This document shows positions 3,078 through 61,246 of a DNA stretch of 64,000 bases, one piece after another. Location: contig CBIMES010000002.1 of assembly GCA_966243015.1 (NCBI GenBank), positions 48,518-112,517 on the forward strand. Reading direction: 5' to 3'. The notes beneath the pieces are model-generated. The model searched no databases, was not told the origin of the DNA, and was given only the letters and a program-made list of their open reading frames with translations. This DNA comes from an uncultured bacterium. GTDB lineage: Bacteria > Patescibacteriota > Minisyncoccia > Phycocordibacterales > UBA6065. Numbering within the stretch: position 1 is the first letter of the stretch; the number at the start of each line of letters is the position of its first letter. Both the position numbers and the translations under genes were made by a program.

Positions 3078-3151
3078 GCGCCCATAGCTCAGTTGGTTAG
3101 AGCACAGAGCTTATACCTCTGCGGTCCATGGTTCGAATCCATGTGGGCGCA
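3078..3151 (+). tRNA. tRNA-Ile with anticodon UAU (CCA not encoded)
   Basis: Cloverleaf: acceptor GCGCCCA/TGGGCGC, D-arm GCTC..GAGC, anticodon stem CAGAG/CTCTG with loop CTTATAC (positions 34-36 = TAT), T-arm CATGG-TTCGAAT-CCATG, discriminator A. Confidence 0.85.
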
Positions 3152-3330
3152 CACCAGACAGTCACGCCACGAAACAAAAAGACCCCGTGGTCGCACACGA
3201 GGCCTTGTAGAGGGTTACCGCAACCAAGAGAGTTATGCGTGGCACTTCTCTCTGAACATTAGTACGTTCGCCTTGGGCAAAACGCTTCACCGAAACAATA
3301 TTAGCAGAGGGAAATTTCGAACTGTCGATA

Positions 3331-5338: not shown

Positions 5339-5788
5339 ATGGCGTTCGCCGAGAACAGGAAAATCAACTTCGATTACGAGACCCTCGAGAGCTTCGAGGC
5401 CGGCATCGAGCTGACCGGGCTCGAGGTCAAGTCGCTCCGCACCCACACCTCTTCCCTCGAGGGCGCCTACGTCACGGTCCGCGGCGGAGAGGCGTTTCTC
5501 GTGAACATGAACGTGCCCCCCTACCAAGTTTCGAACACCCCGAAGGAATACGACCCCCTTCGCGTCCGCAGGCTCCTCCTCGCCAAGAAGGAGATACGAA
5601 AGCTCGCGGATATTGAGGCCGGTAAGGGCTTGACAATAGTACCTGTCAAGGTGTATAATAAAGGAAGGGTGATTAAGGTACAGGTGTCCGTCGTACGAGG
5701 CAAGAAGCAGTTCGACAAGCGACAGACCATCCTGAAGCGCGAGACCAACAGGGACGCGCGAAGGACATTGAAATACGGACAGGAATAG
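5339..5788 (+). CDS. smpB: SsrA-binding protein SmpB
   Basis: 149 aa with a typical SmpB sequence (FDYETLESFEAGIELTGLEVKSLR...KKEIRKL...VKVYNKGRVIKV), directly upstream of a tmRNA-like element. Confidence 0.9.
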   Translation: MAFAENRKINFDYETLESFEAGIELTGLEVKSLRTHTSSLEGAYVTVRGGEAFLVNMNVPPYQVSNTPKEYDPLRVRRLLLAKKEIRKLADIEAGKGLTIVPVKVYNKGRVIKVQVSVVRGKKQFDKRQTILKRETNRDARRTLKYGQE

Positions 5789-5824: not shown

Positions 5825-6220
5825 GGGGATGACGGGCTTCGACACACGATTCCCTTCCCTCTGCGCGCGATAGAGCTTGAGTACCTCTGCAAACTGCTCA
5901 AACCATCAAATGCAAAATCTTCCGTTTCGCCGTATTTCGCGGCACGAGATTTCTCATTCGCTTACGCAATAGCCTAAGCGACATCGTCCTTCTGCGCGTC
6001 CGGCGCGGGAGACCGCGGTGTTATATACCCGGACTAGCTAACTCCCAGTTCCAGGGCGTCTAGCGAGACTCGCCGAAAGGCGGGATGGAAATCGGACGAG
6101 GCGCGTTTTGTCTCTTTTACAGCGCCCCGCCCTAAAGCCCTTACGGGCGAAAACTGACTACATCGCGTAGAACCATTGGGAAAGATCATGTGCACGCGCG
6201 TTCAACTCGCGCCATCTCCA
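5825..6220 (+). ncRNA. ssrA: tmRNA (ssrA), one-piece
   Basis: The 5' end GGGGATGACGGGCTTCGACA matches the tmRNA 5' consensus (GGGG.UG...GG.UUCGAC). The 3' end GCGCG-TTCAACT-CGCGC-CATCTCC-A forms a T-arm and a 7-bp acceptor stem with the 5' end, including the G3:U70 pair needed for alanylation. In-frame tag candidate ...(A)ARDFSFAYAIA-TAA at 5939-5977. Adjacent to smpB. Confidence 0.7.
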
Positions 6221-6226
6221 CAACAA

Positions 6227-7577: not shown

Positions 7578-7738
7578 TAGGCACTATGTCTTTTCAGCAT
7601 ACCATGTGAATAACACACCCTCTGAAAAGACCTTGCGCAGGCCGACGGGCCGAGCAGAGCAAAAGCCCACCAGGGCTTTATGCGTGTCTTGGCAGAGGGT
7701 GTGTTATTCACATGGTACCTTGCATCACATAGTACCTA
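7578..7738 (+). repeat. Structured inverted-repeat element, copy 1 (perfect 22-bp stem 7603-7624 / 7693-7714 around a conserved ~56-nt core at 7631-7686)
   Basis: Outer arms taggcactatgt / acatagtaccta, then catgtgaataacacaccctctg / cagagggtgtgttattcacatg. The core is ~90% identical to the reverse complement of 27682-27738. Confidence 0.7.
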
Positions 7739-7739
7739 A

Positions 7740-8174
7740 ATGTATACTACGCTCATGAACACCCAGGAAAAATTCACGTATCTGTTTTCTCGCTTCGCGC
7801 TCTGTATCGTCTACGTATGGTTCGGCGCCCTCAAGCTCATCAACGCGAGCCCGGCGAACCCGCTCGTCGACGCCCTTCTCCAGAAGACCCTCCCCTTCCT
7901 CAGCTTCGGGGAGTTCATCGTCATCCTCGGCGTCTTCGAAATCCTCATCGGCGTGCTCTTTGTCATTCCCCGCATGGAACGATTCGCCCTGGTCCTGCTC
8001 GTGCCGCATATGATCACGACCGTCGCGCCGCTCTTCCTCCTCGCGCCAATGACCTGGACCGGCTTCCTCTCCCCTACCCTCGAGGGACAGTACATCATCA
8101 AGAACATCCTTATCGTCGCCCTCGCCGTCGACATCTTCATAGAGAACAAGAAAGTCCGCGCGCTCCGCGCCTAA
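7740..8174 (+). CDS. DoxX-like small integral membrane protein
   Basis: 144 aa with four predicted TM helices, an architecture consistent with the DoxX/DUF417 class. First gene of the PadR-PspC cluster. Confidence 0.5.
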   Translation: MYTTLMNTQEKFTYLFSRFALCIVYVWFGALKLINASPANPLVDALLQKTLPFLSFGEFIVILGVFEILIGVLFVIPRMERFALVLLVPHMITTVAPLFLLAPMTWTGFLSPTLEGQYIIKNILIVALAVDIFIENKKVRALRA

Positions 8175-8195: not shown

Positions 8196-8528
8196 ATGAA
8201 CGTCCTCAACATAGAGAAGAACAAGGCGGACATGAGAAAGGGGGTGCTCGAGTACTGCATTCTCCTCATCATCTCCCGCGGCAAGATATACGCGACCGAC
8301 ATCCTCAAGAAGCTCAAGGAGGCTGACCTCATCGTGGTCGAGGGAACGCTCTATCCCCTCCTCAACCGCCTGCGCACCGAGGGTCTCCTCAATTATTCCT
8401 GGGAGGAGTCAAAGTCAGGACCTCCGCGCAAGTACTACACCCTGACAACTGAGGGAAAGGAGCATCTCGCGCAACTCAAAGCAACCTGGAAGTCACTCGT
8501 CGAATCGCTCAGCGCGCTCATGAATTAG
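8196..8528 (+). CDS. PadR-family transcriptional regulator
   Basis: Winged-helix PadR signature: GVLEYCILLIISRGKIYATDILKKL...EGTLYPLLNRLRTEGLL...YYTLTTEGKEHL. Confidence 0.85.
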   Translation: MNVLNIEKNKADMRKGVLEYCILLIISRGKIYATDILKKLKEADLIVVEGTLYPLLNRLRTEGLLNYSWEESKSGPPRKYYTLTTEGKEHLAQLKATWKSLVESLSALMN

Positions 8529-26753: not shown

Positions 26754-27134
26754 TTACTTGGTTGCAGCTACCTTCTTAGTCTTGGCCGGCGCCTTGATCG
26801 CCTTGGTTGCCTTTGGGGCAAGGACAAGGTGAACGTGGCTCGTCTTCTTCTTGATCGGGAAAGCCGTTCCTCGAGCGCCTGGCATGTGTCGCTTCATGGT
26901 AAGGCCGAGGTCTACGCGGCACTCCTTAACGACGAGGCCCTCAAGTGGGATGTTGAGGTTTTTTGCGTTTGCGACAGCTGAGGCAAGGAGCTTCGCGAGA
27001 GGGTCGGAAGCGCGCTTAGTGGTCACGCCAAGCATGTCCATGGCGGCGGTGACTGACTTGCCCTTGATGAGGTTCGCGACGAGGCGGACCTTTCGTGGGG
27101 ACTGTCGATAGTTTGTGAGGGATGCGGTTACCAT
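26754..27134 (-). CDS. rplV: 50S ribosomal protein L22
   Basis: SPRKVRLVANLIKGKSV..AMDML. Confidence 0.9.
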   Translation of the reverse strand: MVTASLTNYRQSPRKVRLVANLIKGKSVTAAMDMLGVTTKRASDPLAKLLASAVANAKNLNIPLEGLVVKECRVDLGLTMKRHMPGARGTAFPIKKKTSHVHLVLAPKATKAIKAPAKTKKVAATK

Positions 27135-27158
27135 AACGTTTTAGTTATAAGAAGACGA

Positions 27159-27500
27159 TTATTTCTTGTCGGTGGCAGCACCCTTGGCGGCCTGGGCAGC
27201 GGCGATCTCACCCTCCTTTTTCTTCTGCTCGAGGTCCTTCTGCATCTTACCGCCGTGCTTGTTGAACTTGCGGGTCAAAGAAAATTCGCCGAGTCGGTGG
27301 CCCACCATGTCCTCTGCCACCAGTACCTCGACGAAGTCCTTACCGTTATGAACGCCAAACTTGAAGCCCACCATCTCCGGGGAGATGACGCAGGCTCGTG
27401 ACCAAGTCTTAATAACCCCAGTCTCCTGTGGTTTCTTGCCGGCGATCTTGCTCAGAACTCGCTCGTCAACGTATGGGCCTTTTGAAAGTGATCGTGTCAT
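27159..27500 (-). CDS. rpsS: 30S ribosomal protein S19 (with a Lys/Ala-rich C-terminal tail)
   Basis: [13 protein letters not shown]...[18 protein letters not shown]. Confidence 0.9.
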
Positions 27501-27654
27501 GTATAGACGATAAATTACAGCTCGGGCGTTTGGACTATAGTCGCTAACACGACTTATTAAATGAAAAAACTAGGCTTAAACCTAGATTCCTTTACTTAGT
27601 GTCCATTCCGAAGCTAGTAAGGGCTATCCTAGCAGAAAACAAAACTAAGTCAAT

Positions 27655-27764
27655 GGGCTCGCTCTCGCCTCCCCGGAAAAGCACGCATAAAGCCCTGCTG
27701 GGCTTTTGCTCTGCTCGGCCCGGTCGGCCTGCGCAAGGCTTTTCCGGATAGGGAGAGACGAGCC
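27655..27764 (-). repeat. Structured inverted-repeat element, copy 2 (core at 27682-27738 is the reverse complement of the copy-1 core)
   Basis: Imperfect outer stem ggctcgctctcgcctccccgg / ccggatagggagagacgagcc around a core roughly 90% identical to the reverse complement of 7631-7686. Lies 150 nt upstream of rpsS on the minus strand. Confidence 0.65.
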
Positions 27765-27818
27765 TGATGCTTGAAAAATAGCGCTTTGTGAGGTATTTTC
27801 AAGGAGCAATCGATCTTT

Positions 27819-28010
27819 ATGAGTCCATCGACCCTCGAACAGGAGCTTGCGGCCCTTGGCCCGAGACCCCTGACCCAATGGGAAGACAAAATCGTGTTAC
27901 CTGACGGATCAACCAGAACATGCATATGCCACATGATTAGCGGCGTCAAAGCCCTGGCACACTGGCATTTCGCCCGACAGGAGATCCTTCAAAGACACGG
28001 CCAAGCCTGA
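27819..28010 (+). CDS. Small hypothetical protein (63 aa, contains a CICH motif)
   Basis: AAGGAG Shine-Dalgarno 12 nt upstream of the ATG; a terminator follows. No homology is assignable. Confidence 0.4.
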   Translation: MSPSTLEQELAALGPRPLTQWEDKIVLPDGSTRTCICHMISGVKALAHWHFARQEILQRHGQA

Positions 28011-28018
28011 CCCTGGCA

Positions 28019-28042
28019 GCCGCCCCTCAAGGGCGGCTTTTC
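28019..28042 (+). terminator. Terminator hairpin gccgccc-ctcaa-gggcggc followed by ttttc
   Basis: 7-bp GC stem with a T-tract after the 27819..28010 ORF. Confidence 0.55.
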
Positions 28043-28054
28043 ATGCGCGGCCAA

Positions 28055-28080
28055 GAAAAAGCCCCGTTTCTGGGGCTTTG
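28055..28080 (-). terminator. Terminator hairpin (aaagcccc / ggggcttt) for the 28094..28618 gene
   Basis: The minus strand reads aaagccccagaaacggggcttttt. Confidence 0.6.
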
Positions 28081-28093
28081 ATGGCCAAAGGGC

Positions 28094-28618
28094 CTAATTA
28101 TTAAAGACAATCTCCTGTCGGAAGGACATCAGGGGCGCCAAAGCGATCTTGCCTGAAGGCAGAACGACCTCGATTCCCTCGGAGGGCATAATGAAAATGA
28201 ACCCTCCCCTTTCATTCGAGTCCCGGTCGGCATCCGCGAGCAGCGTGAGAATCACAGCCTCGTCTTTCGATATCGAGAGGCCAAGTTCCTTGAATACGAG
28301 GAAGCTGTCCCCGTCTTTCTCGACGATGCCGTCAGGGATTGAGATTCGGGCCAGAGCCTTGCCGTCCTTATCCGCCAAGGAAAACCTCGACATGTTCTTG
28401 AGAACCTCGGGCTTTTTGTCTAGCCGGAACATGATCGAACTTACCGTCACACCCGATTCGAACGCACGAAGCGACAGACAGAACACGGGATTGGACCTTG
28501 TCCCCACGGAAATGCTGGTCCTCGACAATTCACCCTTGCGAACGGACAGATGTTCTTCAGGAAGCGCGTAACAAAAGGCTCCGAAAAAGAGCCCGATAAG
28601 GCAGAGTAGTTGTTTCAT
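28094..28618 (-). CDS. Secreted hypothetical protein (174 aa) with weak similarity to the 33175..33813 lipoprotein
   Basis: Signal peptide MKQLLCLIGLFFGAFCYA. LRAFESGV...LADKDG...IPDG segments loosely align with LRAFHSVSLVDADG... of the 33175..33813 protein. Confidence 0.55.
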   Translation of the reverse strand: MKQLLCLIGLFFGAFCYALPEEHLSVRKGELSRTSISVGTRSNPVFCLSLRAFESGVTVSSIMFRLDKKPEVLKNMSRFSLADKDGKALARISIPDGIVEKDGDSFLVFKELGLSISKDEAVILTLLADADRDSNERGGFIFIMPSEGIEVVLPSGKIALAPLMSFRQEIVFNN

Positions 28619-28715
28619 GGTGAAAGAGCGGATGTTTGCATGGTTTATAACACAAAACCGTTGCTACGGCAATTTTAGTAGCGACGGTTCCTTTATTTTA
28701 AGGCGTTTAATTGTC

Positions 28716-29132
28716 CTACCCCCTCTTTCTCCTGTAGCTCGCCTTTGACTCGCGGGTGATAGCGAGAATCGAGATGACGGCAATATACGAGGCGCTTACC
28801 TCTGGCGGCATCTTGTATTCGATATCGGTGAGGGCCTGTGCCGTGATCATGCCCATAATGAGAACCGTCCAGAGGATCGCATAGAGCTCGCCCGGGTGAA
28901 AGCCCTCGTGAACCCTGTGCCATCGACGAAACTCCTTTTCGGCACTGTAAATCGCCAAAGAGGCGCAATAGATACCCGCGATTGTCAGGATTACGTGATT
29001 CTCGTCGAGAATGTTGTGATTGAGAAAATCATAGATAATTGCAGCAAAGAAAGCGACCGTCCAGAAGTTGACCAAACCGCGCCAGAAGCCGAACTTGCCG
29101 ACCCTTTCTGACAGATTGAGGATGAATGCCAT
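28716..29132 (-). CDS. Small integral membrane protein (138 aa, 4 TM)
   Basis: Four hydrophobic helices and a basic C-terminus; no family assigned. Confidence 0.5.
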   Translation of the reverse strand: MAFILNLSERVGKFGFWRGLVNFWTVAFFAAIIYDFLNHNILDENHVILTIAGIYCASLAIYSAEKEFRRWHRVHEGFHPGELYAILWTVLIMGMITAQALTDIEYKMPPEVSASYIAVISILAITRESKASYRRKRG

Positions 29133-29162
29133 GCCTTCATGATATCACGGGCAACGAAAAAC

Positions 29163-29190
29163 CCGCCTTTCGGCGGGTTTCTCTCTTGGT
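29163..29190 (-). terminator. Rho-independent terminator directly after rplB (aaacccgcc-gaaa-ggcgggttt followed by ttttcg on the minus strand)
   Basis: 9-bp GC stem with a T-run, sitting between rplB and the inserted genes. Confidence 0.65.
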
Positions 29191-29207
29191 TGAATGAGTC
29201 GAGAAGA

Positions 29208-30059
29208 CTAGTTCTGCCCCTTTGCCTTTCCGACCTTTCGGCGGGAGACAATGAAGACGTTCGAGTACTTCTTTGGAGTTCGGGTCTTCTGGCCCTTTCC
29301 TGCTGGCTTACCCCATCGGGTCTTGAGCCTTCGGAGACCTCGTCCCTGTCGTCCTTCACCTCCACCGTATGGATGGTCTACTGGGTTCTGTGCAGTACCT
29401 CGGACGGTCGGTCGAATGCCGAGCCATCGTGATCGTCCTGCCTTACCCGAGTTGACGAGCCAGTGCTCATCGTTCGATACCTGTCCGATAGTCGCGAAGC
29501 ACTCCTCGTGCACCTTTCGTACCTCTGAAGACGGCATCTTGATCTGGGTATATCCAGCGTCGTTACCGATGATCTGGGCGAAGATTCCAGCCGCTCGGCC
29601 GATCTTTGCTCCGCCCTGAGGCTTGACCTCGATGTTGTAAACGAAGGTTCCTACAGGAATCTTCTTGAGAGGGAGCGCGTTTCCTGCCGCTACCGCTGCC
29701 GCTGCACCTGCGACGAGGGTCGTGCCGACCTTAACTCCCTTAGGGAGAAGGACGTAGCGTCGCTCGCCGTCTCGGTATGCCGCGAGTCCGATGAAGCCCG
29801 ATCGGTTTGGATCGTACTCGACAGACTTGATGGTAAATGGGATGTCTCGCTTGTCGTACGAGAAGGAGACGTCTCGGAAGAGCCTCTTGTGTCCGCCTCC
29901 CTTGTGGCGAACAGTGATGCGACCGTGGTGGTTTCGTCCTACCTTTCGGGTGCCGCCGTGAGTGAGGGCCTTAACAGGATCCTTCGAGGTGATGTACTCC
30001 TTGAAGTTAATCGTCTGCATGTGCCTTCGGCTCGGGCTCGTTGGTTTATATGTTTTCAT
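29208..30059 (-). CDS. rplB: 50S ribosomal protein L2
   Basis: 283 aa with a canonical L2 sequence (GRNHHGRITVRHKGGGHKR). Confidence 0.95.
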   Translation of the reverse strand: MKTYKPTSPSRRHMQTINFKEYITSKDPVKALTHGGTRKVGRNHHGRITVRHKGGGHKRLFRDVSFSYDKRDIPFTIKSVEYDPNRSGFIGLAAYRDGERRYVLLPKGVKVGTTLVAGAAAAVAAGNALPLKKIPVGTFVYNIEVKPQGGAKIGRAAGIFAQIIGNDAGYTQIKMPSSEVRKVHEECFATIGQVSNDEHWLVNSGKAGRSRWLGIRPTVRGTAQNPVDHPYGGGEGRQGRGLRRLKTRWGKPAGKGQKTRTPKKYSNVFIVSRRKVGKAKGQN

Positions 30060-33813: not shown

Positions 33814-33986
33814 GAGGTTCTAAACACCCAGGGCATATGCCACCCTCGACGCACCCGCGCCAAGAGCTTTGGGAATGATTCTGGAATCGAATTTGCCACA
33901 AACCAGCACAAAGTCAATTCGCGCAAGAAAAAAACCGCCTTTCGGTGGTTCTTTCTGTCTTTCGAATAAGTTCAGAGACACGAGAA

Positions 33987-39623: not shown

Positions 39624-40229
39624 CTATTTGTAGAGCTTGGCACACTGTCGACATGATCCTATCTCGCACGCAGCCCCGTCACCTGTTGTGTTGATAGGGT
39701 CAGCCCAGTAGAATTTACCCCAATAACCTCCCAGTACTGCGCACTGCGCGAACGTCGGTTGGCCTGCGGCTTCTTCAGGGATATATCCGATCTGGAAGCT
39801 GTCTGTGCCGTACGAACTCACATCAACCACGTTCCCATTCTTATCTGTGACGAGACCTGCGATGAGCGCCACGGGCGATGCGTAAATGTAAGCGTTTGCC
39901 TCGCGCGTAGGCACAGGATCAATTGGAACCTTAGCCATATAAGGCGCGAGCGCGGTGTTCAAAGCATCATTACCTTTGTGATTGACGGCACACGTCTGAC
40001 TCGACGTCATACCGAGACAGGCCCCTTTTGTAACAGGATACGATCCCCCATGATCCAAGGCATAGAGATAAAGGGCCTTCGATATCTGGTCCATATCGGC
40101 AACGCGTTTTGCGTTCCTCGCCTTAAGTCGCGCCGCGTTCAGGCTCGAGAGCACGACGCTCGACAGCAAAGCGATGATCGAAATGACAACAAGAAGTTCA
40201 ATGAGTGTGAAGCCCTCTCTGCGATTCAT
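39624..40229 (-). CDS. Type IV pilin-like (prepilin N-terminal methylation domain) protein
   Basis: Start placed at MNRREGFTLIELLVVISIIALLSSVVL. The upstream ATG lies inside the rpsG terminator hairpin. Cys-containing C-terminal domain. Confidence 0.7.
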   Translation of the reverse strand: MNRREGFTLIELLVVISIIALLSSVVLSSLNAARLKARNAKRVADMDQISKALYLYALDHGGSYPVTKGACLGMTSSQTCAVNHKGNDALNTALAPYMAKVPIDPVPTREANAYIYASPVALIAGLVTDKNGNVVDVSSYGTDSFQIGYIPEEAAGQPTFAQCAVLGGYWGKFYWADPINTTGDGAACEIGSCRQCAKLYK

Positions 40230-42386: not shown

Positions 42387-43182
42387 AAATCGCCTGAGCA
42401 TAGACACTCTCTATCTCAGCGGCGACAAGAGACTTGGCGAAAACGTAGACCGAATCGATGAGAAGGTTTCGCCCACACCCATTGGTACACGCGGCCAGGG
42501 CACCAAGCGTGGCGTTAAATGACGCGGGCACACCTGAGTTGGTTGAAGACAGGGTTGTGCCATCAAGCTTTCCGTCGACATACACCTTAAGAGTGGAGCC
42601 ATCATAGGTCCCCGCCAGGTGATACCAGCGTCCAGACTGTATTGCAGTAGAACCAGTCACCGACACTGCCGATCCATTCCAGATCCTAAAGGACGCCCTT
42701 CCCCCGCCAGTCACCTGGAGACTGTAGCCATTGTAGGCGCCGCAACAGTCTCGGTCGTTCGAGAAAATGTAGTTATATCCCGACGTCGTGTACTTGACCC
42801 AACCCATGACGGTAATGCTCCCGGCCATTGAGGAAAGAGAGACGTTCGACCCTGCGTTTACGTAAGGGGTGGTCCCAGACGAGGAGACGGAACAGCCCTT
42901 ACCAGTAGGCGTATCGGTCGAAAACGCCGCGCCGCCAGTCAAGGTGCCCGTATTGCCGTTGCCAGAGAGGTCGTTGGCGACAGTGCCGCTGCACTCGTCG
43001 AACTCCCATATACCCATAGCCTCGTCACCCGCGGCGTGATACACATTTGCGGCAAACTGCCGAGAGGCAGCAAGAGCGGCCTTCGATCGAGAAGCATTCA
43101 CGCTCGATATAACAACGCTCGAAAGAAGCGCGACAATGGCAATGACGACAAGAAGCTCGATGAGGGTGAATCCCCTTTTCAT
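42361..43182 (-). CDS. Type IV pilin-like protein fused to a LamG/concanavalin-A-like domain (second copy)
   Basis: Start placed at MKRGFTLIELLVVIAIVALLSSV. LamG-like region GRWYHLAGTYDGSTLKVYVDGKLDG. The ORF-track 73-aa N-terminal extension is rejected. Confidence 0.75.
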   Translation of the reverse strand: MKRGFTLIELLVVIAIVALLSSVVISSVNASRSKAALAASRQFAANVYHAAGDEAMGIWEFDECSGTVANDLSGNGNTGTLTGGAAFSTDTPTGKGCSVSSSGTTPYVNAGSNVSLSSMAGSITVMGWVKYTTSGYNYIFSNDRDCCGAYNGYSLQVTGGGRASFRIWNGSAVSVTGSTAIQSGRWYHLAGTYDGSTLKVYVDGKLDGTTLSSTNSGVPASFNATLGALAACTNGCGRNLLIDSVYVFAKSLVAAEIESVYAQAISTRPFATR

Positions 43183-50681: not shown

Positions 50682-51413
50682 CTAGGAGCAAGCGCAGTAG
50701 TCATTGCCCGATCCAGAGCACACAGACACGGCGGCGGGATTCGGGATGCAGCTGATGAAACCCGGCTCGACAAAACAAGGACCGCTCGGACCCGTAAACT
50801 TCCAAGGGCACACGCTTCCGTACATGCCGTTTCCTCCGCCGCACTCTGGCCTTCCGTACGTTGTGCAGAAACTAACCGTACCCATCGGATAGGAGAAATA
50901 GACAGCATTCGGATCAGTGTAAGGAGTTGAGGTGGTATATGAAGATATGCAGGTGGTATACGGCTGTTGAACAGGCATAATCGCACAGCTGTTCTTCGAG
51001 GCCTGGGCCTGACCCGTGACGAGAGAGGCTCCGAACGCGGACTGATCGGCGGACGAGTCGGCGTAGTACACGTAGGAATCATCCTTGCTGTCAGGGATAG
51101 CGGAGATGTATCCCCCGCTCACGAGCTCCTGCATGCTCGCATTGAAAGCCTGGGTACCCTCAAGTGCGATTGAGTCTCCCGTGCCACCCGCACAATAATT
51201 GCCGCCACAGTTGTAATTGCGTGGCACCTTTCCCGTGGCGCTCTTCTTGATACTGATCGCCGTCTCGACCTGGTGAACCTGTGACTTCTTGTTTGCGTCG
51301 CTGGCCTTGGCACGCGCCGAGGCGGTCGAGTACATGGTAACGCTCGAAACAAGGGACACGATCGATACTACGACCAAGAGCTCAATAAGAGTGAAGCCGC
51401 GCCTGAGAAACAT
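50682..51413 (-). CDS. Type IV pilin-like protein, Cys-rich C-terminal domain
   Basis: N-terminus MFLRRGFTLIELLVVVSIVSLVSSV, with many paired cysteines. Co-oriented with, and immediately downstream of, pgk. Confidence 0.7.
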   Translation of the reverse strand: MFLRRGFTLIELLVVVSIVSLVSSVTMYSTASARAKASDANKKSQVHQVETAISIKKSATGKVPRNYNCGGNYCAGGTGDSIALEGTQAFNASMQELVSGGYISAIPDSKDDSYVYYADSSADQSAFGASLVTGQAQASKNSCAIMPVQQPYTTCISSYTTSTPYTDPNAVYFSYPMGTVSFCTTYGRPECGGGNGMYGSVCPWKFTGPSGPCFVEPGFISCIPNPAAVSVCSGSGNDYCACS

Positions 51414-61145: not shown

Positions 61146-61171
61146 AATTCTTCTCAAGAGAACCTCACTCA

Positions 61172-61210
61172 AAAATAAAATCCGCATCATACGATGCGGA
61201 TTTTATTTTT
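61172..61210. terminator. Bidirectional terminator (aaaatccgcatc-atac-gatgcggatttt, followed by tatttttcc)
   Basis: 12-bp stem with flanking A and T tracts, between tig and rsmE. Confidence 0.7.
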
Positions 61211-61246
61211 CCTTCAGGTTTGCTTGAGAAATTGTTTCGAAAAAAA

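Follow-up and report, generated by a model that had tools for sequence, protein, structure and literature searches.

A structured repeat stands upstream of rpsS, the gene for ribosomal protein S19, in the 64,000 nucleotides (nt) of DNA from an uncultured member of the Patescibacteriota that we analyzed here (the window). As judged from sequence comparison, this repeat, a long hairpin that we call copy 2, is an accessory insertion that borders the rpsS promoter on its distal side and lies outside the rpsS control region; it is neither the rpsS promoter nor a required regulator. At a probability of roughly 0.55, we favor the explanation that it belongs to a family of non-coding, non-autonomous, selfish mobile palindromic elements with a passive barrier effect at most. 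The rpsS promoter and leader, which are conserved in the lineage, would have been in place when the element inserted, and its hairpin base would have come to lie 2 nt in front of the -35 box. The effect of the element would be neutral or selfish; at most, as a very stable hairpin or cruciform, it might passively separate the variable cargo upstream from the rpsS promoter. We read the insertion as accessory because the promoter and leader are conserved in lineages without the element.

The rpsS locus of the window is made up of the following features (positions are those of the window).

26754 to 27134, minus strand: rplV (Pfam).
27159 to 27500, minus strand: rpsS (Pfam PF00203, E = 5.6e-32), first gene of the displaced rpsS-rplV-rpsC... 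unit.
27501 to 27625, minus strand: conserved rpsS leader of ~120 nt, outside the element (alignment and consensus fold, seven lineages).
27626 to 27653, minus strand: rpsS promoter-like site, outside the element (consensus scan and conservation).
27656 to 27764, minus strand: copy 2 of the structured repeat in its mini form, the whole 109-nt hairpin (fold and covariance model R1).
27771 to 28042, plus strand: small divergent unit adjoining the 5' side of copy 2, without counterpart at the orthologous locus L008.
28094 to 28618 and 28716 to 29132, minus strand: two unrelated open reading frames (ORFs) between rplB and rpsS.
29208 to 30059, minus strand: rplB, with which the upstream half of the S10 cluster ends (Pfam).

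The sequence-only reading that preceded this work had proposed that the S10 operon is cut after rplB, that rpsS would need its own promoter, presumably within the AT-rich stretch at 27501 to 27650, and that a second copy of a repeat lies just upstream of it. The cut between rplB and rpsS is borne out by the Pfam assignments, and the repeat is a 109-nt hairpin, the second copy of an element at 7600 to 7717. A promoter-like site does adjoin the element and is conserved in seven lineages; it sits at the upstream edge of the AT-rich stretch and is not spread across it, which refines the earlier placement. The site consists of a -35 box, TTGACT (27653 to 27648), which begins 2 nt past the last paired base of copy 2, a 16-nt spacer and a TG-extended -10 box, TGCTAGGAT (27634 to 27626), giving the motif TTGACT-16-TGcTAGGAT. 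This predicts a transcription start near 27618, downstream of copy 2, and copy 2 would thus probably lie outside the rpsS mRNA. The predicted start comes near to the result that the sequence-only reading had named as its refutation. In the leader that follows, two helices, an outer one (AGCUU/GAGCU) and an inner one, are joined by the hairpin CTAGGTTTAAGCCTAG and then a T-run (27585 to 27564; a terminator-like site).

The decisive comparison is with relatives whose rpsS loci were fetched (fetched loci carry an L and a number). Five of them, L022 to L026, encode an identical S19 and have the same arrangement as the window, while ten loci, L027 to L036, represent six more distant lineages with S19 proteins 86 to 96% identical, some of them named Paceibacterota by their sources. 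Among the DNA samples that match the window are ERZ27394141 and SRR16817062. All six lineages keep TTGAC(T/A), a 16- to 17-nt spacer, TGnTAnnnT and a ~120-nt leader with two covarying helices, a hairpin and a U-run before the rpsS ATG. TTGAC and TGnTAnnnT are thus conserved in seven lineages, and six of these are without the element, which was found in none of the six by nhmmer or, in five of the six, by the covariance model. At rpsS the element occurs only in the window species, together with the arrangement of L022 to L026, and in the metagenome contig L008. The latter ends at the start of rpsS; up to there it is orthologous to the window, beginning with the core and 3' arm of the element and continuing over promoter and leader, and its upstream gene is unrelated to that of the window. 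The split between rplB and rpsS, with variable cargo in it, is found in all six lineages without the element (rplB is not reached in one contig, L030). The cargo there is a 213-aa and a 140-aa gene, the 140-aa gene alone, the 140-aa gene with a DUF805 gene, a 59-aa ORF, a 337-aa pilin-like gene or a 57-aa antisense ORF; the DUF805 gene stands upstream of rpsS in L030, whose contig ends before rplB. Because these lineages keep the split, the cargo, the promoter and the leader, the element is neither needed for the displaced unit nor its creator. Nor does it belong with autoregulatory leaders of rpsS, which would be transcribed and would be kept wherever operon and promoter are kept: the conserved -35 box comes only after the element, and six of the seven lineages lack the element. 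For annotation, the hairpin upstream of rpsS should not be taken as the rpsS regulatory region; the adjacent promoter and leader are the conserved features.

The rpsS leader deserves attention in its own right. Promoter and leader together span 27501 to 27653 (minus strand) in the window and 916 to 1073 in L008, and they take up the ~160 nt upstream of rpsS in L027, L030, L031, L033 and L035. The leader hairpin, CTAGG..CCTAG, is followed by a U-run, its two helices show some covariation, and it has no Rfam match. It is a candidate for a new ribosomal-protein leader or attenuator of the S19-L22-S3 unit in this Paceibacterota lineage. The junction between rplB and rpsS is a lineage-wide hotspot for cargo genes (27654 to 29207 in the window; L022 to L036): the relatives that reach rplB carry differing small cargo, such as membrane proteins, pilin-like genes and tiny ORFs, and the 138-aa gene of the window (28716 to 29132) seems by eye to match the 140-aa gene of L027 to L029. 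Two 57-nt segments that contain a terminator and are 72% alike lie at 29148 to 29204, just after rplB, and at 33920 to 33976, upstream of the S10 cluster; the terminator-like hairpin of the former supports a real transcriptional stop after rplB.

Why, then, is such a hairpin found next to a ribosomal-protein promoter? One answer, the idea of the sequence-only reading, is that it is a selected cis module, an insulator, a bidirectional transcription barrier or an mRNA 3'-end stabilizer at promoter-proximal sites. Such a module would keep transcripts of the variable cargo from running into the rpsS promoter and would bring about termination of convergent or upstream genes. Its stability would suit this role. 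Whichever strand folds, copy 2 forms a long hairpin, with -70.2 kcal/mol (z = -5.9) for one strand and -70.5 kcal/mol (z = -6.2) for the other; all of 200 shuffled sequences were less stable. The same can be said of its position: the base of the hairpin is 0 to 10 nt upstream of a -35 box in five forward copies (both window copies, L008, L011 and L039), and in about nine other copies a convergent gene ends at or within the 3' arm, its stop codon -13 to +17 nt away with no other terminator between. In addition, copy 2 is flanked by two divergent promoter-like sites. The second of these belongs to the small divergent unit, which comprises TTGAAA-17-TATTTT, an AAGGAG ribosome-binding site, a 63-aa ORF (27819 to 28010) and a terminator (28019 to 28042); the ORF is antisense to the operon and has no Pfam match. 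However, six lineages run the same rpsS promoter and leader without the element, and canonical terminators are already present ahead of the element: two after the 174-aa gene upstream of copy 2, and one after the upstream gene in L008, which has the orthologue of copy 2. An intrinsic terminator combines a GC-rich hairpin with an immediate U-tract; copy 2 is followed by CAUUGACUUAG, with no U-tract, and a terminator scan of 27100 to 28200 called other hairpins and not this one. Moreover, gaps between a stop codon and a promoter are where compact genomes tolerate insertions. We regard a selected cis module as distinctly unlikely.

Copy 2 has a single companion in the window. The stretch from 27655 to 27764 occurs there only once as a whole, and its central ~57 nt recur at 7621 to 7686 on the opposite strand (41 nt at 98% and 29 nt at 83% identity). 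Run over the 64 kilobases (kb), the covariance model of the family gave exactly two matches, copy 1 and copy 2 (the latter with 91.7 bits, E = 5e-22). Copy 1 and the parts of copy 2 are as follows.

7600 to 7717, plus strand: copy 1 of the structured repeat, mini form, a hairpin (R1 match of 100.9 bits).
27738 to 27764, minus strand: 5' arm of helix P1 of copy 2, GGCTCGTCTCTCCCTATCCGGAAAAGC, with its inner ~15 nt common to copy 1 and its outer ~11 nt specific to this copy.
27710 to 27737, minus strand: junction and P2 of copy 2, in which P2a (UUGC/GCAG) with a GCA/GA internal loop encloses P2.
27717 to 27729, minus strand: P2 hairpin of copy 2, GGCC-GACCG-GGCC (alignments and pair counts).
27685 to 27709, minus strand: P3 hairpin of copy 2, GCAAAAGCCC-AGCA-GGGCUUUAUGC, the module used for finding relatives.
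27656 to 27684, minus strand: 3' arm of P1 of copy 2, GTGCTTTTCCGGGGAGGCGAGAGCGAGCC, kept in the orthologous copy of L008.

Common to both copies are the ~57-nt core, CTTGCGCAGGCCGAC(C)GGGCCGAGCAGAGCAAAAGCCCAnCAGGGCTTTATGCGTG, and the inner ~15 base pairs (bp) of the closing stem. The outer 11 to 15 bp of the stem have unrelated sequences in the two copies, yet they are paired in each. The folding or forward strand is the minus strand for copy 2, which is that of rpsS, and the plus strand for copy 1, which is that of a DUF417 gene at 7755 to 8174; the two copies thus have the same orientation relative to their downstream genes, as had been noticed before.

Beyond the window, the family comes in two forms, a mini form of ~100 to 125 nt and a large form of ~190 to 280 nt. 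Mini copies are the two of the window and those of L001, L008, L010 and L011; the model adds copies in L011, L012, L013, L019 and L039, as well as a degenerate mini copy in L010 and a truncated one in L035. In the large form a 15-bp stem (UCAAUUAGAAAACAA / UUGUUUUCUUGAUUGA) that bears a domain of 60 to 150 nt takes the place of the 4-bp P2 hairpin, and L014 is intermediate between the two. The common order, from 5' to 3', is P1 (20 to 33 bp), (C/A)UUGC-GCA, P2, (C)GA-GCAn-A, P3 (GCAAAAGCCC-nnnn-GGGCUUUAUGC), G-U and the return strand of P1. The closing helix P1 has a different sequence in every copy and encloses a conserved three-way junction. The core has P2a with a G(N)A/GA internal loop, and in minis the 4-bp hairpin P2, with the loop GACCG in copy 2 and GACG in each of the 10 further minis that were aligned; the GA on the 3' side of P2 is invariant in the mini alignment. 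In L019 (2300 to 2500) a mini seems to be nested in the apparently truncated 5' part of a large element (..AAGACATTGCGCAGGTATTCAAGAAACAACC..), with its P1 running on from the P2 stem of the outer element, and the truncated copy in L035 (1 to 62, minus strand) is a two-helix core variant (UCUC-GGA-GCGC-GACG-GCGC-GA-GAGU); L035 comes from a relative of the window organism, and the variant lies there ~300 nt upstream of rplC.

The fold is maintained by compensatory change. In eight hand-trimmed mini copies 86.7% of cells were paired, compared with 69% in shuffles, and 25 of 36 pairs had changed on both sides. The 11 mini copies aligned by the model, an alignment that is fitted to the covariance model and hence biased towards the structure, gave 91.4% of cells paired (63% in shuffles, 34 to 50% with slid partners), with both sides changed in 32 of 35 pairs; 9 of the 10 pairs of P3 covary across the mini copies. 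For 11 large copies, 27 of the 58 consensus pairs showed two or more Watson-Crick types. The divergent copy of L039 has all three inner helices swapped (UCUC/GAGG, GGUC/GACC and CAGCGGA/UCCGCUG) and retains the GACG loop and the G.A/GA internal loop. Mismatches are skewed as well: G-U outnumbers A-C by 19 to 7 in minis and by 38 to 7 in large copies, and purine-purine outnumbers pyrimidine-pyrimidine by 22 to 4 in minis, which we take as moderate evidence of a strand preference, as many cells are inherited and not independent. These counts indicate that the forward strand is the one that folds, be it as RNA or as single-stranded DNA.

The same data could describe a family of functional non-coding RNA genes, in which the core would be the mature RNA or a protein-binding scaffold and P1 a precursor stem cut by RNase III; the window copies would then be mini paralogues, and P1 could be likened to the processing stalks of rRNA. 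The covariation is very strong, the mismatches favor one strand, and the core is conserved across contigs labelled as different phyla of the Candidate Phyla Radiation (CPR), including its unpaired GACG loop, GA bulge and CGAGCAnAGCA. RNase III prefers duplexes of about 20 bp or more, and P1 is a near-perfect duplex of at least 20 bp. Promoter-like sites occur, as seen by eye, ~45 nt upstream of the L005/L016 copy (TTGACT-17-TGTATAAAAT) and as a weaker match in L004, and by the consensus scan just upstream of copy 2 (TTGAAA-16-TATTTT, 27802 to 27775, minus strand). However, a sigma-70-like site that points into the element was found in only 5 of 23 copies and not in L008, the orthologue of copy 2, and some copies leave no room for a promoter. 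For example, the L003 copy is antisense within a co-directional yebC-ruvC pair: the stop codon of yebC falls inside the copy, and a mere 22 nt separate its end from the start of ruvC. Presence, absence and orientation vary among nearly identical strains, which is unusual for an essential RNA gene, and there is no match to an Rfam family: at gathering thresholds, Rfam 15 found tmRNA and tRNA alone in the window and L001 to L007, and at E values up to 10 it gave chance-level scores of 9 to 15 bits in window 27600 to 27820 and L003 5700 to 6000, compared with gathering thresholds of 39 to 70. We consider an RNA gene family unlikely. A protein-coding role was rejected. ORFs across the element (e.g., 7606 to 7758 and 27650 to 27949) had no Pfam match where tested, the conserved peptide merely tracks the conserved nucleotides, and the large form breaks the frame.

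That the copies come and go speaks for a selfish mobile element. The rpsS locus is filled in the window species and in L008 and empty in the six lineages L027 to L036. Between leuS and a gene for a 343-aa protein, L040 and L041 are empty, with 9 nt from the leuS stop codon to the -35 region; a forward copy stands in L011, a reverse copy with a different P1 and P2, next to a second, degenerate copy, in L010, the divergent, fully covarying copy in L039, and a small ORF instead of a copy in L038. Downstream of the same gene, L011 carries a 104-nt copy with a 23-bp GC-rich perfect stem where L010 is empty, and the 343-aa proteins of L010 and L011 differ by a few residues only. Since near-identical strains differ in presence, absence and orientation, we conclude that the family is mobile. 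This agrees with the suggestion of the sequence-only reading that the element is portable: it occurs in multiple copies, in many CPR genomes and in unrelated contexts. Housekeeping genes of unrelated kinds adjoin the copies (hisS, rny, an FKBP gene, rpsA, tkt, yebC/ruvC, leuS, lysS, lepA, hup and tgt), copies between co-directional genes lie in either orientation, and six loci have two copies within 1 to 8 kb.

The further suggestion that the element travels with insertions is upheld in one part only. In both window loci the homology with relatives ends at the 5' side of the element (L008 for copy 2, L042 for copy 1), and the genes beyond are unrelated; the elements thus coincide with gene-order breakpoints, and both window copies lie at a border between homologous and variable DNA. 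In contrast, split and cargo occur in six lineages without the element. The same observations bear on whether the element is a DNA-level recombination site, an attC-like folded single strand or cruciform for the insertion or exchange of cargo. The position of the breakpoints, the repeated turnover of the element at the leuS site and the stems, which are conserved in structure and variable in sequence and so recall attC, are what such a site might be expected to show. Yet the cargo between rplB and rpsS is equally variable in relatives that lack the element, there is one element per cargo region and not one per cassette, the conserved center and variable ends are the reverse of attC, and no integrase or tyrosine recombinase was found among the genes annotated next to the copies. 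A recombination site is, to our mind, very improbable.

How the private stems arise is suggested by copy 1. Its outer 15 bp pair 7600 to 7614 with 7703 to 7717. In L042, which encodes a DUF417 protein 83% identical to that of the window and has no element, the sequence GTTGTTCACATGGTACCTTGCAT (window 7703 to 7725) is kept upstream of a conserved TATACT -10 box and a leaderless ATG. From this empty site it follows that the outer 3' arm of copy 1 is native sequence and that 7600 to 7614 is its inverted duplicate. Other copies point in this direction: the end of a convergent gene, from its last codons to the stop, forms part of the 3' arm in L001 (14 nt) and in L003 (8 nt), and in L039 and L011 the outermost bases of that arm are native promoter-upstream sequence. 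The native side is the 3' side in all of these cases (L042, L001, L003, L039 and L011). This polarity is as expected if the 3' end of the hairpin primed a copy of the adjoining flank (snap-back synthesis), and it suggests that the stem would be extended at insertion by an inverted duplicate of the 3' flank through hairpin-primed DNA synthesis. The conserved unpaired nucleotides of the core would be the probable site for a trans-acting factor. The stronger version of this idea, in which both stem arms are always flank-derived, was discarded: the whole 23-bp GC-rich stem of the L011 copy is absent from the empty site in L010, so that in this pair the element must have brought its entire stem along.

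The DUF417 promoter region (window 7703 to 7767, L042 1625 to 1690, L043 2470 to 2510) offers some observations of its own. The DUF417 gene seemingly has a leaderless mRNA, with a conserved TATACT 7 nt before the ATG at 7755, where the gene calls in databases start too. In L042 its promoter overlaps a perfect 11-bp palindrome (ATGGTACCTTG-CATAA-CAAGGTACCAT), which may be a putative operator of the PadR-family gene directly downstream (Pfam in L042); the putative window counterpart of that gene is the ORF at 8196 to 8528.

Several points weigh against a selfish mobile element. A consistent target-site duplication was not found: the longest direct repeat in the flanks is 2 to 6 nt in 22 of 23 copies, which is in the chance range (the outliers are L018 with 8 to 11 nt and, by eye, one L011 copy, L011a, with 8 nt). 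No transposase, reverse transcriptase or other partner protein was identified, and no transposase was seen next to any copy in the 1- to 14-kb loci or the 64-kb window. The stem ends are not conserved between copies, unlike those of a classical MITE (a miniature transposable element with inverted repeats), and the P1 arms differ past the inner 5 to 15 bp. The core, ~93% identical between L003 and L005 by eye, is conserved across contigs labelled as different CPR phyla and keeps G-U pairs, as is seen more often in functional RNAs than in selfish DNA. The two window copies, along with several others, are forward and directly upstream of a promoter, which could reflect selection for function. Lastly, snap-back synthesis is suggested by one clean empty-site comparison, where a deletion in L042 could also fit. 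A TYGAGA direct repeat around the large copies is a conserved internal loop near the base of P1 and not a target-site duplication.

Among known repeats, MITEs come close. Correia elements in Neisseria, ERIC/IRU in enterobacteria and RPE in Rickettsia are likewise non-autonomous repeats of ~100 to 150 bp that form long hairpins near genes, and the size variants of ERIC that stem from internal insertions parallel the mini and large forms described here. Such MITEs are sometimes co-transcribed with their neighbors, processed by RNase III, or supply promoters or terminators. Like them, our family has multiple non-coding copies with insertion polymorphism. However, MITEs have conserved terminal inverted repeats and a fixed target-site duplication, neither of which was found here, and the outer stem of copy 1 is an inverted duplicate of its flank. 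The repetitive extragenic palindromic sequences (REPs) and the REPINs of ~100 nt, which are mobilized by RAYTs (IS200/IS605-like transposases), are also short non-coding extragenic multi-copy palindromes that form hairpins and lie in either orientation. REPs are 20 to 40 bp long, with stems of 8 to 9 bp, a GTAG or CGTC tag at one end and arms that are conserved between copies (PMC3733652). Action as single-stranded DNA, with one strand preferred, has been suggested for them, as have roles as terminators or mRNA stabilizers (PMC3733652). In contrast, the elements described here are 100 to 280 nt long, with a branched conserved center, arms private to each copy and no GTAG or CGTC end tag; their sole CGTC is the reverse complement of the GACG hairpin loop and not an end.

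The attC sites of integrons are likewise imperfect palindromes that are recognized by structure more than by sequence, used on one strand and found at the borders of variable cargo; their stems are conserved in structure and variable in sequence. Unlike our family, which conserves the center and varies the outer stem, attC conserves the outer R boxes (R''/R') and varies the center. Moreover, attC sites come with an array of cassettes beside intI; here we saw no cassette arrays, and no integrase is among the genes annotated around the window copies. The RNase III stalks and intervening sequences of rRNA operons share with P1 a long near-perfect duplex around a conserved RNA, free in sequence as long as pairing is kept. 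However, those stalks flank rRNA, whereas the elements here are scattered between genes in either orientation, are insertion-polymorphic and have no evident promoter.

Every copy found sits in a contig of the Patescibacteria (CPR). A scan of genome collections with the P3 module gave seven matches, all titled as CPR metagenome-assembled genomes (Paceibacterota, Minisyncoccia, Saccharibacteria and Zambryskibacteria), a scan of metagenomes gave 14, and the covariance model found further copies in the fetched loci. There was no match in IMG/VR for three family patterns and no family member in INPHARED phages or PLSDB plasmids by blastn; a 25-nt match in an Ensifer megaplasmid was put down to chance, as it has no hairpin and no model match and looks like coding sequence. 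A search of the full-text literature found no description of such a CPR repeat or RNA. The family is apparently undescribed, with no Rfam match, nothing in the literature and no member in phages or plasmids.

CPR genomes are tiny and compact, and little is known of their non-coding DNA. This widespread and strongly structured family has a branched core that is conserved, long stems that are private to each copy and, at least once, a stem built from the flank, a combination that was not met in described bacterial repeats. The family marks sites of gene-order change and points to a new mobility mechanism or a new RNA function. We entertain, as a tentative idea that we would not expect to hold, that it is a new CPR-restricted class of structured mobile element or RNA, whose core would be read by a host or element factor and which would spread, with no need of conserved ends, by snap-back synthesis that makes a long stem private to the new copy out of flanking DNA, or from whose private stems of 20 to 33 bp RNase III would make copy-specific small RNAs. 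If true, the snap-back or small-RNA reading would amount to a new mechanism of genome plasticity or new RNA biology in the least-studied third of bacterial diversity. A role of the P1 arms as guides or spacers against phages or self was rejected: no 13-mer of 11 arms recurs in the window or the fetched loci. Three of four arm sequences had no match in IMG/VR, and the single 20-nt match of the fourth, to a GC-rich terminator hairpin in an unrelated phage, was treated as chance. GC skew in the window was uninformative on orientation relative to replication.

A 9-mer that resembles a DnaA box, TTATCCACA, occurs nine times in 331 kb of fetched DNA, and four of these occurrences lie within 0 to 45 nt of an element, mostly on its 3' side (L007 5773, L013 2988, L019 2483 and L012 3755). 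It may be a promoter-associated motif in these genomes.

Other features of the window are unrelated to the element. A long hairpin at 61151 to 61230 has 38-nt arms that are 84% complementary, a 4-nt loop and a terminator-like center (AAAATCCGCATC/GATGCGGATTTT). Four 63-nt repeats with 70 to 75% identity (1450 to 1512, 40155 to 40217, 43114 to 43176 and 51339 to 51401) are probably paralogous coding sequence and not a non-coding repeat, as one of them translates by eye, on the reverse strand, as the N-terminal part of a type IV pilin (..FTLIELLVVI..). A gene for tRNA-Ile with the rare anticodon TAT (UAU in RNA) lies at 3078 to 3152. The transfer-messenger RNA (tmRNA) gene, at 5825 to 6223, encodes the tag peptide AKSSVSPYFAARDFSFAYAIA and stands just downstream of an ORF at 5339 to 5788, which is probably smpB, a putative assignment drawn from the orthologous locus L043.

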